Under the pieces are notes generated by a model, which was given only the letters and a program-made list of their open reading frames with translations, ran no database searches and was not told the DNA's origin. Made by a program: the position numbers and the translations under genes. A stretch of DNA of 64,000 bases, taken from the NCBI GenBank assembly GCA_000146465.1, contig CP001943.1; one strand, given 5' to 3'. This document shows, one piece after another, positions 4,641 to 33,239 of the stretch (position 1 is the first letter of the stretch; every line of letters starts with the position of its first letter).

Positions 4641-5279
4641 ATGGTGGAAGGAGCCACTGCAGATGTATCCAAACAACTGACTATCATAGGTTCTGCAACA
4701 TGTGGGAAGACAAGCATCCTCACCAGACATGTGAAAAGAACCTTTGGAACGGAGATAAGCCCTACGGTGTTCAACTCGGTTAGTAACACATATAAGCACA
4801 AGAATAATGTGGTTGAGTTAAGACTCTGGGACACAGCAGGACAGGATGAATATGCCCGGTTCCGGCATCTTGCTTTACCTTCAGCGGATTACATTATGAT
4901 AGTGTATGCCATTGACGATCGATCTTCTTATGCTGAAGTTAAGAATAGCCTCATTGGGCAGGTGAAAGAAAAGGCACCACAAGCAAAATACTTTCTTGTT
5001 GGAGCAAAGGTCGATCTAAGAGAAGATAGTAAGAGGCTTGAGGAGCTTGCTAGGAATGGAAATTCCCCAATAACTACCTCTGAGGGACTGGAGCTTTCTC
5101 AGAGCATCGGAGCATTAGGATACTTTGAATGTTCTGCAAAGAACAACATTGGGATCGACGAGATATTTGAGAAGATTTCAAGCTATGCTTTGAAAGTATA
5201 TCTGAGAGAAAACAAGTCCTTCATGGGAAGGATACTTACTTCTCTGTGGAATTTTCTTTGCTGCCGGAAAATAAATTGA
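4641..5279 (+). CDS. Rho-family small GTPase
   Basis: P-loop GSATCGKTS, PTVF switch I, WDTAGQDEY switch II and a C-terminal CC motif. The ORF track starts at 4581, but the likely true start is the ATG at 4641 (MVEGATA...), which follows an AAACCCCAAG-ATG context. Confidence 0.65.
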   Translation: MVEGATADVSKQLTIIGSATCGKTSILTRHVKRTFGTEISPTVFNSVSNTYKHKNNVVELRLWDTAGQDEYARFRHLALPSADYIMIVYAIDDRSSYAEVKNSLIGQVKEKAPQAKYFLVGAKVDLREDSKRLEELARNGNSPITTSEGLELSQSIGALGYFECSAKNNIGIDEIFEKISSYALKVYLRENKSFMGRILTSLWNFLCCRKIN

Positions 5280-26751: not shown

Positions 26752-29223
26752 CTATGTCTTTTCAGATAGTTGAGGTGTGTAAATTAAATGTGGTTCCTTA
26801 AATCCTCGGAAAATTCTCCTTCCCTGACTTATGTACATAATCTTCGAGTGCTTTGTCCACACACAATGGCAACAGAACACCCCGATCCCAAGATTCGCAA
26901 TCCGAGACGCCTTGTTGAGCACAGGGCCATAAAACCTTACATGGTTGTTCATTATCCTTGTATAGAAGGTCCCGCATGTTATCCCTATTCCAACATCAAT
27001 CCCTAGACACCTGAGCATTTCTTGAATCCTTATTCCCCACAGACAAGCCTCTACTCTGTCATGAAATGCAACAATCCATATTCTTGAGAAAAACTCAATC
27101 CGAGTTCCAGAAAACACATTGCTCATCATTCTCATTATATTCATAACATTCCCAATAACATATCTGTAGCTTGTGTCTTTTGGAATAAGCTTGCAGAATG
27201 CAAAAATAGGATTTGGATTAAGGAGAAGAGTACCGTAGAATTGCCTTGTGCTGCTTTTTCTCGCAAAGTTATAGTTTTCACTTCCCTGAACTCCATTTTC
27301 GTTCCCTTTTTTCCTAAGAATGCTTCTGATAACCGTCTCATATGATATCTTACTTGGAAGGTCAATTCTGGATATTAGCTCTACACTTGCCTTTGAGTTT
27401 TTGGGTAGTTTGGATGTGTTTGAGATTGCCATTACTGCAGAGAGAGGGCATTGGTGGCCTATGAAATCTAATACAAGGCCCAGATCATTCCTGACCGTAT
27501 CCAATATGTCAAATCTTGCAATACTTCCTTTGAAGCTGCAGAATAGAGGGATAAAATGCCAGTTTCCAATGTTGTCATACACCTCGACAACATCGGGGCC
27601 TTCGAGAATCTTAATCTCCGCAAAGTTGGAAAACACAACCTCAATCCCTCTTCCGTTAAGGATAACATGCTTGGGCGTCACCATGCACAATGCATATCCT
27701 ATTCTGGCTCCTCTTGCAAAAATCATCTTCCGAAGAAGAGAGCAAAACTTCTGAAAATATTCATAGGAATTAGAGGTTTCCTGTATTCTTACCTGGATAG
27801 TTTCAAGTATTTCAAAGACACCAGCCTCAAAGTCCCCCATAGATATAACGAGGAGTCTTCCATTGATTCCTTTAGGATGGACTATAAATCGTTCGATCTC
27901 CTTTTTCTTCTCTAAGCATTTGTGTACATTCTTTTCTATTCTATTCCCTCTAAAATCTTTTATAACATTTGTACCTTTTAGATTGAGGAACTTCAATTCC
28001 ATTTCTCCGTAATTCTCAAGGCTGACAAGCGGGTTGTACGAAAGATTCAGGTGCTCCAGATTTTTCCATTTTGCAAGGTTAAAAACCATTATCTGATTCT
28101 TGGAGGCATCGAGGAACCTGACTCCTTTGCTTGCTATTCCATGTATAAGGTTTCCAGAAATATCCAAGTACTCAAGAAATGGAAAAAAGGGAACTTCCTC
28201 TATAAAATTGTTTCTGGCCTTCAGGACTCTTAACTTCCTTGCATTAAACGACAAGAGACGTAGGCTGCAGAAATTTACACTCAGGAATACAAGATTTTCA
28301 AATGTTCCGAGACGGATTTCCTTTGTCCCATCTACAATCAGCTTCTTTGTTATTTGTGATTCCAATGACTTTAGCATTGTGTGGGATAGATTTAGTACCC
28401 TGGCTTCTGCATTGTAGTGTTCCAGGGGGTTGTGGCTCAGGTTCAAGTTCTGATATGTAGATTCTTGGAAGAATCTGGTTATCTCGTTATACGAAATGTC
28501 CAGATTCGACGCCTTCATCCTAATGACTCTGGTTATTTTGTTATGCGAAAGATTGACAGTGTTGAATTGGCCACAAACATACACTACTCCGGATATGTTG
28601 TTATGGCTTAGATCTAAATGTGTAAGCTTCATCATCGAAAGATCTGGGATCTTCTTGATATTGCAATTCACCATTCTAAGTTTCTTGAGTGCTGCAAATT
28701 TGGATTGGTCTTGTAACACCATCCTTGTAAAGGTCACATTTGCTACAGAGCTCCTTGGCTCAACCACCACCAATCTTCGTAAACTGCATATCCTTATCAA
28801 ATCCCCGTCCTTGTAAAGACATCGAAGAATGGGTCTGTCAAGGCCCTTCAGAACTTCCATTCGGTCTTCGTAGAGTACCCCTAAGACTCCTTTCCCTCCA
28901 ATCTTTCCCAACAAGTCTTTTGTTCTAGAGAAAATGGATCCGGTATATTCATATTCCTTGTCTTTAAAACCATAAACAGGGATGGTTATGGTGAAGTCAT
29001 CCAAGTAAACAAGCTCCGAAGAAAAGACATGTCTAATCTTTGTGGAAGTTATCCTTTTTTGGCTCTCAACTCTTCGAACCTCCAGCTCAATCTCCATAAA
29101 GGGTCTCGCAAAAATCAATTGATAATAGAGATCTTCATTAATATTTAGGTCATCTAAGGAAAGTCTATTTTGGTGTATTTGCCTCCTTTTAAAAACATCC
29201 ATTTCTAGATTCTCTGGGCCCAA
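26752..29223 (-). CDS. Leucine-rich-repeat protein with C-terminal class III adenylyl/guanylyl cyclase-like catalytic domain (fungal Cyr1-like architecture)
   Basis: About 10 tandem LRRs (LTHLDLSHNNISG, NTVNLSHNKITRV, LDISYNEITRF, LNLSHNPLEHY, LNLSHTML...). A C-terminal segment ...GIDVGIGITCGTFYTRIMNNHVRFYGPVLNKASRIANLG resembles cyclase motifs (RIGIHTGPVVAGVIG...YCLFGDTVNTASRMES). Confidence 0.5.
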   Translation of the reverse strand: MGPENLEMDVFKRRQIHQNRLSLDDLNINEDLYYQLIFARPFMEIELEVRRVESQKRITSTKIRHVFSSELVYLDDFTITIPVYGFKDKEYEYTGSIFSRTKDLLGKIGGKGVLGVLYEDRMEVLKGLDRPILRCLYKDGDLIRICSLRRLVVVEPRSSVANVTFTRMVLQDQSKFAALKKLRMVNCNIKKIPDLSMMKLTHLDLSHNNISGVVYVCGQFNTVNLSHNKITRVIRMKASNLDISYNEITRFFQESTYQNLNLSHNPLEHYNAEARVLNLSHTMLKSLESQITKKLIVDGTKEIRLGTFENLVFLSVNFCSLRLLSFNARKLRVLKARNNFIEEVPFFPFLEYLDISGNLIHGIASKGVRFLDASKNQIMVFNLAKWKNLEHLNLSYNPLVSLENYGEMELKFLNLKGTNVIKDFRGNRIEKNVHKCLEKKKEIERFIVHPKGINGRLLVISMGDFEAGVFEILETIQVRIQETSNSYEYFQKFCSLLRKMIFARGARIGYALCMVTPKHVILNGRGIEVVFSNFAEIKILEGPDVVEVYDNIGNWHFIPLFCSFKGSIARFDILDTVRNDLGLVLDFIGHQCPLSAVMAISNTSKLPKNSKASVELISRIDLPSKISYETVIRSILRKKGNENGVQGSENYNFARKSSTRQFYGTLLLNPNPIFAFCKLIPKDTSYRYVIGNVMNIMRMMSNVFSGTRIEFFSRIWIVAFHDRVEACLWGIRIQEMLRCLGIDVGIGITCGTFYTRIMNNHVRFYGPVLNKASRIANLGIGVFCCHCVWTKHSKIMYISQGRRIFRGFKEPHLIYTPQLSEKT

Positions 29224-29256: not shown

Positions 29257-29892
29257 TTGGATGCCGTCTTTAAGGGGTCAGGCGCTTGCCAATCCCTACA
29301 AATCACTTTTGTTTTGAGCCCCTGCATGGACAAGTTCCACTCGCTGGCCATAAAAGCATTACTTACATTTATTCTCACAACCGGAGTATTTGTGAATGAG
29401 GGCTCATTCAAGATGCCCTTATGGATTGGTCTGTTACCGGCTGTTTTGTTTAATCCAGCTGTGGCTGTATACTTTTACGTAAAAAGGATGGAATATAAAA
29501 AGAGGTTTTTGAGAAAAACATATAATCCCGGGAACAGAGCACTCTTGGGGTTTGCCTTCGGTGAGGTTTTGTCTATAATGCCATTTTATTGCATATCGGA
29601 GTACTGGAAAACCATGCTGTTGAACATCACTTTGGTGGCCATACTCAGCATTCTTCCAATGGTTGATTCCTCTGGAAGAAGAACAATACAGCTGGAGCGA
29701 AATGAGGAGTTTTTCAAAATAGGCTTCCTTAGAGTGGAACATGTCGAGGGTGGAGATGTGTGCCTTAACAAAGGCGAAGTCGTCCAGATTCTGGATCATT
29801 CTGGAGGAAGCACCACAGTAAGAAAGTCCGACGGAAGGGTCTTTACAATAGAAGACTCCTATATCGACGATGGAATCGACATTGTCCTGTAG
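29257..29892 (+). CDS. Sho1-like membrane protein: four TM helices plus C-terminal SH3 domain
   Basis: Four hydrophobic segments (LAIKALLTFILTTGVFV, LWIGLLPAVLFNPAVAVYFYV, ALLGFAFGEVLSIMPFYCI, MLLNITLVAILSILPMV), then an SH3-like C-terminus (FLRVEHVEGGDVCLNKGEVVQILDHSGG...DGRVFTIEDSYI). The true start may be an internal ATG. Confidence 0.45.
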   Translation: MDAVFKGSGACQSLQITFVLSPCMDKFHSLAIKALLTFILTTGVFVNEGSFKMPLWIGLLPAVLFNPAVAVYFYVKRMEYKKRFLRKTYNPGNRALLGFAFGEVLSIMPFYCISEYWKTMLLNITLVAILSILPMVDSSGRRTIQLERNEEFFKIGFLRVEHVEGGDVCLNKGEVVQILDHSGGSTTVRKSDGRVFTIEDSYIDDGIDIVL

Positions 29893-29996
29893 CAATATCA
29901 ATATGATTAGTAATCAGACAAATCTTTCAAATAAAATAGTACTAGATTTTCGAAAGTTATAGGAATAGCATGCGAGCATAGTTCATCCAACCACGT

Positions 29997-30543
29997 TTAT
30001 TCAACTAGAATGCCCTCGAAGTTCTCAACAAACCACTTCTTGGCATCTTCTGCATAGACCCTCTGCTTATTTCCAACCTTTGATCTGCATCTTCTCCTTT
30101 TCGATACCCTATCTCCTGGTCTTGAAAGAACTACAAAGAAGTCCATTCCGAAGATTCCGATGTTTGGATCATACTTCAGACCAAGGTCAATGTGCTCTTC
30201 AATTCCAAATCCAAAGCATCCGTTATTGCTGAAGCAACTCTCCTTAAGTTCGTATTCCTTGACCTTCAATGCTGTGTTGAGAAGCTCGTAAGCCTTCTTC
30301 CCAGATACATTGACATGGACAGCAATCTTCTCGTTTCTCCTAATTCCGAAGTTCCTGATGGTCATTCTTGCCTTCGAGGCCACGGGCTTCTGTCCAGTCA
30401 ACTGCTCGAGAACCTTTGCTGCCCTGTCAAGCTTCGCTCCGCTTTCCCGTGCACAAATGTGGATGGAAAGTTTCTTAATGCTTATCTCTCTCATTGGGTT
30501 TATCTTAAATTAGCCCGTTTCAACTTACTTTCTTCGATGCCAT
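29997..30543 (-). CDS. RPL11: 60S ribosomal protein L11 (uL5), two exons
   Basis: Exon 2 (29997..30503) encodes [12 protein letters not shown]...[15 protein letters not shown]...[12 protein letters not shown]...[25 protein letters not shown]. Exon 1 is 30529..30543 (ATG GCA TCG AAG AAA). Splicing out a 25-nt intron gives [12 protein letters not shown]..., matching the uL5 N-terminus (..ENPMRELRIRKL). Confidence 0.75.
30504..30528 (-). other. Spliceosomal intron (25 nt) in RPL11
   Basis: Minus-strand sequence GTAAGTTGAAACGGGCTAATTTAAG: canonical GTAAGT 5' splice site, branch-like CTAAT close to the 3' AG. Confidence 0.65.
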
Positions 30544-31082: not shown

Positions 31083-33239
31083 ATGGAGCATCTACTGAAC
31101 GACATTCTGCAGAATCCCCAAGGGCCTTCTGTAAAGCATGTTGAAGAGCGCTTGGACGGAATTGACGGGCAACGTGAATTTGTGGAGCTTCTCAAGAGCG
31201 GAAACGGAATCGCATTTACTTACATGAAGACAAGATGTAAGGAGTGGACCGAGAACCCGAAACGCATTGAGATGATACACAGAATTCACGATGTTCTGTT
31301 CTCACTGATATTCACATCTTCCGAGCAGAACTTCGGGATCCTATGCTTCTTTTTCGAGACCTTGTATCTTTGCGGAAACGGATGGAGCAGCCTAGTTGAG
31401 GACTTATGTGCAAATCCAAATGGAAGAAGTGTAAGAGTTCTGAATCACATGTTCAACAAGTACAGGGTTTGCTCAAGAAGCAATGCCCTGTATGGCGAAA
31501 TAATAAGGAACATAGAGCTGTGCCAGGACATATTTAGGAAAGCATACTTCGAATCTCTTTCTGAAGACGAAAACATCCTTGGGATGTTCCACTCCCTGGT
31601 ATTTCAGGACATCCATCCCTTCTTTGAGAACAATGCAGATAGGTTTCTAGGATCATTTTGCAAGTTGCTACGTAAGCAAGTTCTCGAAAAGGATGTATGC
31701 GAGATCTTCAACTTGTTTGTAACAAAGTATCCCGAGTGTGTTGACATGACAAGGATTCTAGGAGTGGTGCTGACAACTATAACAGGATTCGATTATCTTA
31801 AGTATACTGTTCTGCTCAACATTGTGAAGAGAAAAAGCCATCCTGTCCTTTCTAAGTTCTCCGATGCGCTTTCAAATGCAGTGAAGATGGGCGCATTTGT
31901 GTCTGAGAACGAAATCATGGAAATGAATGAGGATGTGCTGCTGTATTCAAGAAATCTCCTAAAAGGTTACGATGTAAATAGAGGAATAATTATCGAGATG
32001 ATCGGGCATCTTCGGAAGGTTTTTGGAGAAGGATGGGGAAGCATGCTTATTGAAGGAACAGTGGCAACACCAATAGAGGAAGAGAGATTAATATTTTTGT
32101 GCATGGCTTTGGGGATCCGACTGGAAGAGGCTGTTAGGAAGTGCAGTGGGATAGTTCAGGATAGCAAGTCTATAGGATATCTGGGAGTTGTTTCCTTTCG
32201 ATATCTGCTGTCTATTGGCCACTACACTGTCATTGATCCGGGATACATTAACAGAGGAAACCCTGGATCATTTCTTGCAATGGTGTATCTAAGCAGATGT
32301 ATTGATAACAGTGGTGCTTTGGAGTCTCTTGAGTCCTATTCAACAAGATATGGAGAGGGGAACCCGGAAGCATGCAGGAAGATTGGAGGTCCTGAGAATT
32401 GCGCAAAGATCATGAGCCATCTAATGAAGTTTCTTAGAGATAACATCGAAGATGAATTTTCTTCACAATTGGTTCAGAAAGTGGTTAGAATCTGCCCTTC
32501 TTCTGTAAGTCCCGAGGTCGTGAGGTTTATCGATGAATTTGTATGGAAAAATGTCAGGAATATCAATTCACCTCAAGCTTATGGATATCTACTTGATGTG
32601 CAAGGACTTGTTTTTCTGAAGACAGGAGACAATACCTGGATTCTGAATCTTGTGCAGGTTGTGCTAAGCGAAGAGATATTCGAAATATATTCCTCTTCAC
32701 TATTTCTTCTTGCCATTGTTGTTCTGCACTCATCTGGAGACTTCTCACCTGTTGTAGAAATAATAAGACAGGAGAGCCTGTGGAAAACTAAGGAGCTTCT
32801 TCTAAGTATGGTTTGCCTTACAGTATCCCTTTTCAAGACGGGGAATTGCAGCAAGGAGCAGGTGGACTACATTGTTGAGTATCTGCTAGGAGTCAGCATT
32901 CATCATGCCTATGTTCTTCTCACCAACACAGTTGTTTCGGGAGATTATCTGAAGTGGATCAAGGGAGAAAACATAGAAGAGGAATTTGTGCTAGCTTGTG
33001 CACTGAAGAAAAGGGGCTTGATCAGCGAAGAGATGTACAAGGAGATATACACCAGGAGTCTTCAGTATTTTGAAAAGAATTTTGTGTCGAAAAGAAATGC
33101 CCGGCGGGTTCTGAGAGGGCTGGGATATGGGATGGAAAGCTTTGGGAGGAGTGAAGCTTACGGGGTAATGGAAAGAAACAAACACAGTATAGGCTATGAA
33201 AACATTCCTTTCAGTGTAGCCGTTGCCTTTGAGCTCTAA
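31083..33239 (+). CDS. Hypothetical protein (718 aa), helical-repeat (ARM/HEAT-like) appearance
   Basis: Long uninterrupted ORF rich in amphipathic helices. No diagnostic motif. Confidence 0.4.
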   Translation: MEHLLNDILQNPQGPSVKHVEERLDGIDGQREFVELLKSGNGIAFTYMKTRCKEWTENPKRIEMIHRIHDVLFSLIFTSSEQNFGILCFFFETLYLCGNGWSSLVEDLCANPNGRSVRVLNHMFNKYRVCSRSNALYGEIIRNIELCQDIFRKAYFESLSEDENILGMFHSLVFQDIHPFFENNADRFLGSFCKLLRKQVLEKDVCEIFNLFVTKYPECVDMTRILGVVLTTITGFDYLKYTVLLNIVKRKSHPVLSKFSDALSNAVKMGAFVSENEIMEMNEDVLLYSRNLLKGYDVNRGIIIEMIGHLRKVFGEGWGSMLIEGTVATPIEEERLIFLCMALGIRLEEAVRKCSGIVQDSKSIGYLGVVSFRYLLSIGHYTVIDPGYINRGNPGSFLAMVYLSRCIDNSGALESLESYSTRYGEGNPEACRKIGGPENCAKIMSHLMKFLRDNIEDEFSSQLVQKVVRICPSSVSPEVVRFIDEFVWKNVRNINSPQAYGYLLDVQGLVFLKTGDNTWILNLVQVVLSEEIFEIYSSSLFLLAIVVLHSSGDFSPVVEIIRQESLWKTKELLLSMVCLTVSLFKTGNCSKEQVDYIVEYLLGVSIHHAYVLLTNTVVSGDYLKWIKGENIEEEFVLACALKKRGLISEEMYKEIYTRSLQYFEKNFVSKRNARRVLRGLGYGMESFGRSEAYGVMERNKHSIGYENIPFSVAVAFEL

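Follow-up and report, generated by a model that had tools for sequence, protein, structure and literature searches.

The Eint_020550 locus

The DNA analysed here is a stretch of 64,000 nucleotides (the window; contig CP001943.1 of assembly GCA_000146465.1) from chromosome II of Encephalitozoon intestinalis, with a G+C content of about 40-44% and tight gene packing. At 29326-29892 it carries Eint_020550, annotated as an 'uncharacterized protein' in E. intestinalis ATCC 50506, and the 188-amino-acid (aa) product read from the ATG at 29326 is 100% identical to that protein over its full length. A sequence-only reading of this region had proposed a tetraspan membrane protein with a C-terminal SH3 domain resembling Sho1, the fungal osmosensor that feeds the high-osmolarity glycerol (HOG) mitogen-activated protein kinase (MAPK) pathway. 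Our analysis points instead to a family, apparently restricted to microsporidia, in which four transmembrane (TM) helices are followed by a cytosolic domain that is predicted to have the SH3 fold and in which the residues of the usual SH3 binding surface are replaced. The gene and the parts of its product map to the window as follows.

29326-29892, plus strand: Eint_020550 coding sequence, 188 aa and stop codon (full-length 100% match; conserved upstream CCC motif; ratio of nonsynonymous to synonymous substitution rates, dN/dS, of 0.09 against E. cuniculi)
29332-29400, plus strand: helix 1 (TM1), aa 3-25, with conserved Lys10 (AlphaFold2 secondary structure by DSSP, and hydropathy; Lys10 in 34 of 39 family members)
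29413-29505, plus strand: helix 2, aa 30-60, with the TM2 core at about aa 32-50, running on into a cytosolic basic segment (AlphaFold2, hydropathy)
29479-29538, plus strand: conserved basic cytosolic loop, aa 52-71, motif KKxxYxxxFLRKxYxPS (family alignments)
29533-29598, plus strand: helix 3 (TM3), aa 70-91, with membrane-embedded Glu80 and a terminal FY motif (AlphaFold2)
29605-29664, plus strand: helix 4 (TM4), aa 94-113, with a polar Asn/His at position 100 (AlphaFold2)
29665-29709, plus strand: short basic linker, aa 114-128, predicted disordered (predicted local distance difference test, pLDDT, below 50 at residues 116-128)
29710-29889, plus strand: C-terminal domain of predicted SH3 fold, aa 129-188, with a non-canonical binding surface

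Family distribution and conservation

A profile hidden Markov model (HMM) of the family, searched against 1.84 billion representative proteins, gave 45 matches. About 42 of these are family proteins, 58-215 aa long, the majority being full-length at 180-215 aa and sharing one layout. About 40 representatives are spread across microsporidia, in the named genera Encephalitozoon, Ordospora, Vairimorpha (V. ceranae, V. bombi), Enterospora, Enteropsectra, Edhazardia, Spraguea, Hamiltosporidium and Gurleya, and all named members carry the annotation 'hypothetical protein'. A profile built from 39 sequences, the members to which the counts below refer, added no relatives in a further large protein search and found no member outside microsporidia, and by these searches the family appears to be microsporidia-restricted. 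One database match, P0054, is a 58-aa protein made up of the SH3-like domain alone (MKRNYVEDDEIRLGMGEVVQVVGEKGDFVVVRKFNGELYEI...), which may come from a fragmented gene or represent the domain in free-standing form.

Compared with its E. cuniculi orthologue, Eint_020550 has a dN/dS of 0.09 over the whole gene; the value is 0.08 for the membrane part and 0.03 for the linker plus C-terminal domain, and the synonymous sites are close to saturated. Eint_020550 is under strong purifying selection, and the C-terminal barrel is its most constrained part.

Four transmembrane helices with both ends predicted in the cytosol

An AlphaFold2 model of Eint_020550 was built on a 13-sequence alignment (mean pLDDT 78; predicted template modelling score, pTM, 0.53) and contains the four helices listed above. 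Their Kyte-Doolittle peaks reach 1.65-1.88, and hydropathy exceeds 1.6 in 35-38 of the 39 members for each helix region, so that the four TM helices of the earlier reading are upheld by the model and by the hydropathy of all four across the family. Lysine and arginine residues average 6.8 in the TM2-TM3 loop, 4.1 after TM4 and 1-2 in the two short loops, and because they are concentrated in the second loop and after TM4, the positive-inside rule places both termini, together with the C-terminal domain, in the cytosol. Four clustered TM helices with both termini cytosolic, a feature of the Sho1 type, are therefore found here on the combined basis of model, hydropathy and charge distribution. 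A distant member of the family, P0022 (about 25% identical), was modelled separately and again showed four helices and a beta domain.

Several positions inside the helices are strongly conserved. At Glu80 of TM3 (window 29563-29565), 31 of the 39 members have Glu and five have Asp, and Y88 in the same helix is kept in 31. Position 100 of TM4 (Asn100, window 29623-29625) is His in 23 members and Asn in 12. Conservation of an acidic residue in TM3 and of a polar His/Asn in TM4 would not usually be expected of helices that do no more than anchor a protein.

A predicted SH3 fold with a non-canonical surface

The AlphaFold2 beta domain spans aa 129-187, and residues 129-188 are predicted to fold as an SH3-type barrel. 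Across the family this domain follows the pattern FKxGxL...LxKGExVxI...V(R/K)xSxGxEFxI...I and ends in an acidic-hydrophobic tail, IDDGIDIVL or DIEEIIDIV. When the E. intestinalis model was compared with the PDB by Foldseek, eukaryotic SH3 domains dominated the top 50 at probabilities of 0.99-1.00, with the yeast Sho1 SH3 domain in complex with a Pbs2 peptide (2vkn; E 6.4e-3; TM-score 0.71, target-normalised) in first place, ahead of SNX9, Nck, Crk, Btk, Lck, Eps8 and spectrin. The P0022 model also retrieved SH3 domains, led by Pex13p, Nck2, myosin-IB, Eps8 and Sho1, with the Sho1 SH3 at rank 7. The top matches of both models are SH3 domains of fungal membrane proteins (Sho1 and Pex13), with E-value margins over the SH3 domains of soluble proteins that are negligible, and since the margins are so small their place at the top is probably coincidence.

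At the sequence level the SH3 signal appears to be real but weak. Pfam SH3 models, PF00018 and PF14604 included, gave no match to Eint_020550 even at E<=10; Pfam and NCBIfam scans of the protein assigned it to no family, with one sub-threshold match to a small barrel, TrmI-like_N (E 0.023), and a single-sequence search of the PDB returned nothing below E 1. A profile search of the PDB had the SH3 domains of Kalirin (E 0.069) and Fyn as its best matches, and across the 39 members SH3 signals below the Pfam threshold came from SH3_KALRN (best E 0.001, three members) and SH3_2 (E 0.023, one member). The non-family matches of the family HMM among the 1.84 billion proteins were only three, with 3, 6 and 8 Pfam SH3 domains, at E values of 3.6e-10 to 1e-4 summed over the repeats. 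The C-terminal SH3 module of the sequence-only reading stands as a fold, by AlphaFold2 and Foldseek, and fails as a match to the SH3 HMMs PF00018 and PF14604.

The positions that form the peptide groove in Sho1 are occupied by other residues in the family. Y309 corresponds to Gly in 30 of the 39 members and Y311 to Leu, Met or Ile, both positions being assigned by ungapped extension of the hhalign register. No member has Trp at W338, where Gly, Asn or Ser stands instead; P352 varies, and at Y355 the family has Asp in 16 members and Tyr in six.

Relationship to Sho1

For comparison, a yeast Sho1 query that is 100% identical to a 367-aa database protein returned 106 proteins, all of them, where named, labelled SHO1 or 'osmosensor', and 20 of these sequences were aligned for profile-profile comparison. 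Over their full length, hhalign joined the two families in 38-40 SH3 columns only (family segment DVCLNKGEVVQILDHSGGSTTVRKSDGRVFTIEDSYI; P 0.002-0.01), and the SH3 parts alone gave P 0.0017 at an hhalign probability of just 4-16%. No similarity was detected by hhalign between the two TM regions (local P 0.08 over 18 columns, global P 0.87), Sho1 was absent among the 45 family-HMM matches, and the Sho1-invariant TM residues W45, P63, W67, Y92, Y106, G128 and W139 have no counterpart in the family. Alignment with fungal Sho1 accordingly places the SH3 parts in register over about 39 columns and gives nothing for the membrane domain. Of the proposed Sho1-like architecture, the layout is retained, with four TM helices, a cytosolic SH3 fold and N-in/C-in topology, while no kinship of the TM domain with that of Sho1 is detectable. 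The family either arrived at the Sho1 layout by convergence or has diverged from Sho1 so far that the relationship can no longer be recognised. A literature search found no paper on a microsporidian Sho1-like protein or on an SH3 domain of this family, and for Sho1 in early-diverging fungi it gave taxonomic papers only.

Input into the HOG pathway, as first suggested, was not borne out: the Pbs2-binding residues are replaced, and Pbs2, Hog1 and the kinases of the MAPK cascade are reported absent from microsporidia. E. cuniculi has no MAPK, MAPKK or MAPKKK, including Pbs2, Ste11 and Hog1, in a study that did not extend to E. intestinalis (PMC2078597), and MAPK cascades are absent from the kinomes of E. 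cuniculi, E. bieneusi, N. bombycis and N. ceranae, a set that again does not include E. intestinalis (PMC4280135). The same kinome survey found one STE20-family kinase per microsporidian genome (PMC4280135). Because microsporidia are reported to be without a MAPK cascade, Eint_020550 is not expected to signal to a Pbs2/Hog1 module.

A second explanation is that Eint_020550 is a true and extremely diverged Sho1 orthologue, kept after the HOG MAPKs were lost for a MAPK-independent role (a membrane or turgor sensor, or a scaffold in polarity or cytokinesis), its linker deleted and its SH3 surface remodelled. Domain order, N-in/C-in four-helix topology and the cytosolic C-terminal SH3 domain all match Sho1, and we know of no other fungal family besides Sho1 and Pex13 in which several TM helices are followed by an SH3 domain. 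The Foldseek placing of 2vkn, first for the E. intestinalis model and seventh for P0022, and the in-register alignment of the SH3 parts (P 0.0017) fit this explanation as well, and microsporidia are close relatives of fungi whose proteins are shortened and very fast-evolving (PMC2078597). On the other side, the TM domains show no profile-profile similarity by either the local or the global measure and no Sho1-invariant TM residue is kept, while the loop motif, E80 and H/N100 of the family are foreign to Sho1. The family HMM met no Sho1 in its search, the SH3 likeness singles out Sho1 no more than Nck, SNX9, Pex13 or Sla1, and both the ligand residues of the SH3 domain and, as reported, the ligand Pbs2 itself are gone. 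Orthology with Sho1 is in our view unlikely, though by no means negligible.

Proposed function and alternative identities

On balance, and with moderate confidence, we read Eint_020550 as an adaptor anchored in the membrane, peculiar to microsporidia and equipped with an SH3 domain of non-canonical type. Its four TM helices would form a compact bundle that begins and ends in the cytosol and is joined by a short linker to the cytosolic SH3-fold domain. This domain may tether a partner from the cytosol to the membrane, using some surface that is not the classical proline-peptide groove, and the bundle may in turn associate with itself or with another membrane protein by way of the conserved Lys10, Glu80 and Asn/His100. 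The adaptor function, the membrane that the protein occupies and its partners are matters of inference.

Several points weigh against this reading. The TM helices were judged from hydropathy and AlphaFold2 only, and the orientation of the helix bundle relative to the SH3-fold domain is unreliable in the model (pTM 0.53, linker pLDDT below 50). A literature search found no paper that mentions Eint_020550 and no experimental or expression data for it. The suggested adaptor role draws on the general behaviour of SH3 domains, while the residues with which they usually bind are absent here, and the domain might have a wholly different kind of ligand or only a structural role. Finally, the conserved membrane-embedded Glu and His/Asn are no less compatible with transport or ion binding than with passive anchoring.

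In another possible identity, the helix bundle is the functional core of a small oligomeric channel, a transporter or a membrane-complex subunit that uses the buried Glu and His/Asn, and the SH3-like barrel serves as a cytosolic regulatory or assembly cap, like the beta domain of MscS-type channels. We regard it as rather improbable. Less probable again, and doubtful at best, is a Sho1-style four-helix sensor, either kept or newly invented, whose remodelled SH3 domain would couple membrane or turgor state to a non-MAPK output. Candidate outputs would be a cAMP pathway of the divergently transcribed neighbour, a leucine-rich repeat (LRR) protein and putative cyclase, or the osmotically driven germination machinery.

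That Eint_020550 is a remnant Pex13-like protein is very improbable. The SH3 domain of Pex13p (1n5z, 1jqq) is the top Foldseek match for the distant member P0022, although its E-value margin over other SH3 domains is negligible. No Peroxin-13_N (PF04088) match was found in any of the 39 members at E<=0.1, and there is no N-terminal Tyr/Gly-rich region, the family protein opening straight with TM1. To our knowledge, microsporidia have neither peroxisomes nor peroxins. The Pex13 identity was rejected for want of the Peroxin-13_N match.

A chance open reading frame (ORF) or mis-annotated non-coding stretch, to which an interval beginning at TTG, not a eukaryotic start, and holding no Pfam domain might point, is scarcely credible and is refuted by a dN/dS of 0.09 with saturated synonymous sites, full-length homologues in at least nine named genera, a conserved position beside the ribosomal protein gene uL5, a conserved start-site motif and a confident AlphaFold2 fold.

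Gene start and neighbouring genes

The following features flank the coding sequence of the proposed adaptor.

29257-29325, plus strand: TTG-initiated 5′ extension, non-coding, within the 123-bp divergent intergenic region (TTG belongs to the bacterial start codons; orthologues start at the Met of MDKF/MNKF)
29297-29325, plus strand: conserved upstream element TACAAATCACTTTTGTTTTGAGCCCCTGC, 29 nt, with a CCC-like motif at its end; probably a core promoter or a signal for transcription start
29930-29935, plus strand: AATAAA, candidate polyadenylation signal, 38 nt past the stop codon (read from the sequence and presumptively assigned to Eint_020550)
26752-29202, minus strand: LRR protein, divergently transcribed, context only (Pfam LRR_4, LRR_8 and LRR_1)
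29997-30494, minus strand: gene for ribosomal protein uL5 (L11), convergent neighbour (Pfam Ribosomal_L5 and L5_C)
29326-30494: pair of family gene and uL5, found also at L001 9392-10588, L002 274-1470, L003 5001-6216, L004 5001-6386 and L005 5001-6516

The ORF first reported at 29257-29892 is indeed an open frame of 211 codons on the plus strand, and its TTG was accepted as a start because the frame had been read with the bacterial code; TTG is a start under that code only, and the eukaryotic ATG lies at 29326. In all orthologues the first residue is the equivalent Met (MDKF/MNKF), and these starts, together with the conserved CCC-ending element upstream of the ATG, set the true coding sequence at 29326-29892. 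Directly before the ATG, TACAAATCACTTTTGTTTTGAGCCCCTGC is nearly invariant across E. intestinalis, E. cuniculi and Ordospora, with counterparts at about 4972-5000 in both L003 and L004, and the remaining spacer has diverged. A CCC-like motif stands immediately upstream of most E. cuniculi start codons (Peyretaillade et al., PMC2803860); TACAAATCACTTTTGTTTTGAGCCCCTGC exceeds the CCC motif alone in length and may be a gene-specific promoter element. The AAUAAA signal is in use in E. cuniculi (PMC2803860).

Eint_020550 had been described as lying immediately downstream of an 'LRR-cyclase' gene on the opposite strand. The two genes are on opposite strands, but the LRR gene has its ATG at 29202 on the minus strand and stands head to head with Eint_020550 over a 123-bp spacer, and since the two are transcribed divergently Eint_020550 is not downstream of it. 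As for the label, the LRRs are clear (LRR_4, E 5e-18), whereas the cyclase domain is weakly supported and this half of the name is unconfirmed. A Pfam scan of the LRR protein found no Guanylate_cyc or other cyclase domain, and its C-terminal 264 aa had no match in the PDB. A profile of four orthologues weakly matched soluble adenylyl cyclase ADCY10 over the last ~70 profile positions (E 0.09), and the C-terminus holds a stretch, 'YGPxLNKASR', which we take to resemble class III cyclases. Orthologues of the LRR protein are present in E. cuniculi, Ordospora and V. ceranae (21% identity, 602 aa).

On the other side, uL5 adjoins the family gene in every locus examined, namely in E. intestinalis, E. 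cuniculi, Ordospora and V. ceranae and on a further compact eukaryotic contig with a distant member. The two genes are convergent in Encephalitozoon, Ordospora and Vairimorpha and in tandem on the same strand on the distant-member contig. The adjacency probably reflects microsynteny that has been retained, and not a functional connection. Past uL5, a 718-aa ORF at 31083-33239 (plus strand) has a sub-threshold Pfam match to the exportin-like Cse1 (E 4e-4), and its position is kept in E. cuniculi and Ordospora.

Significance

Microsporidian genomes are among the smallest in eukaryotes, and given such tiny genomes and the strong constraint seen in many genera, the gene likely does something that the parasites need. 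The members of the family carry no annotation beyond 'hypothetical protein', and Pfam does not pick up their SH3 fold. Its recognition, tethered to a membrane, offers a handle for finding the binding partner and the membrane involved, and the family provides a case study of an SH3 domain with the fold kept and the proline-peptide groove lost. The label 'Sho1 osmosensor' would be an over-annotation and would suggest, wrongly, that organisms reported to be without a HOG-type pathway possess one. If the sensor explanation, which we rate low, were true, the family would be a signalling input of minimal eukaryotes that had gone unrecognised, and would show the Sho1 architecture rewired in nature.

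Comparison with known systems

An MscS-like reading of the protein was rejected for poor superposition, and the family shows neither the MS_channel domain nor the MscS-type order of a TM3 pore helix followed by beta and alpha-beta domains. In Pex13, as in the Eint_020550 family, a segment embedded in the membrane precedes an SH3 domain that lies in the cytosol at the C-terminus, but the Peroxin-13_N domain and Tyr/Gly-rich N-terminal region of Pex13 are absent from the family. With canonical SH3 domains (PF00018, PF14604, PF07653) the family shares the predicted beta-barrel fold, yet it scores below every Pfam SH3 threshold, has neither the ALYDY tyrosines nor the WW dipeptide nor the Pro-x-x-Tyr of the peptide groove, and has in addition the acidic-hydrophobic C-terminal tail.

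The differences from Sho1 extend over the whole protein. Full-length Sho1 matches are of 265-444 aa, against 180-215 aa in the family, and the linker between TM4 and the SH3 domain is ~150 residues in yeast Sho1, against ~15 here. The N-terminal cytosolic segment of Sho1 is missing in the family, whereas Sho1 has no counterpart of the family's long, basic and conserved loop between TM2 and TM3 or of its buried Glu and His/Asn. The Sho1 SH3 residues that bind the proline-rich motif of Pbs2 (Y309, Y311, W338, P352 and Y355) are replaced. Membership of the Sho1 family is denied on these grounds, because TM-domain homology, ligand-binding surface, and size and linker all depart from those of Sho1. 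The combination of several membrane passes with a cytosolic SH3 domain is a known layout and not a new principle, and what the Eint_020550 family has in common with Sho1 is this domain order together with the N-in/C-in four-helix topology.
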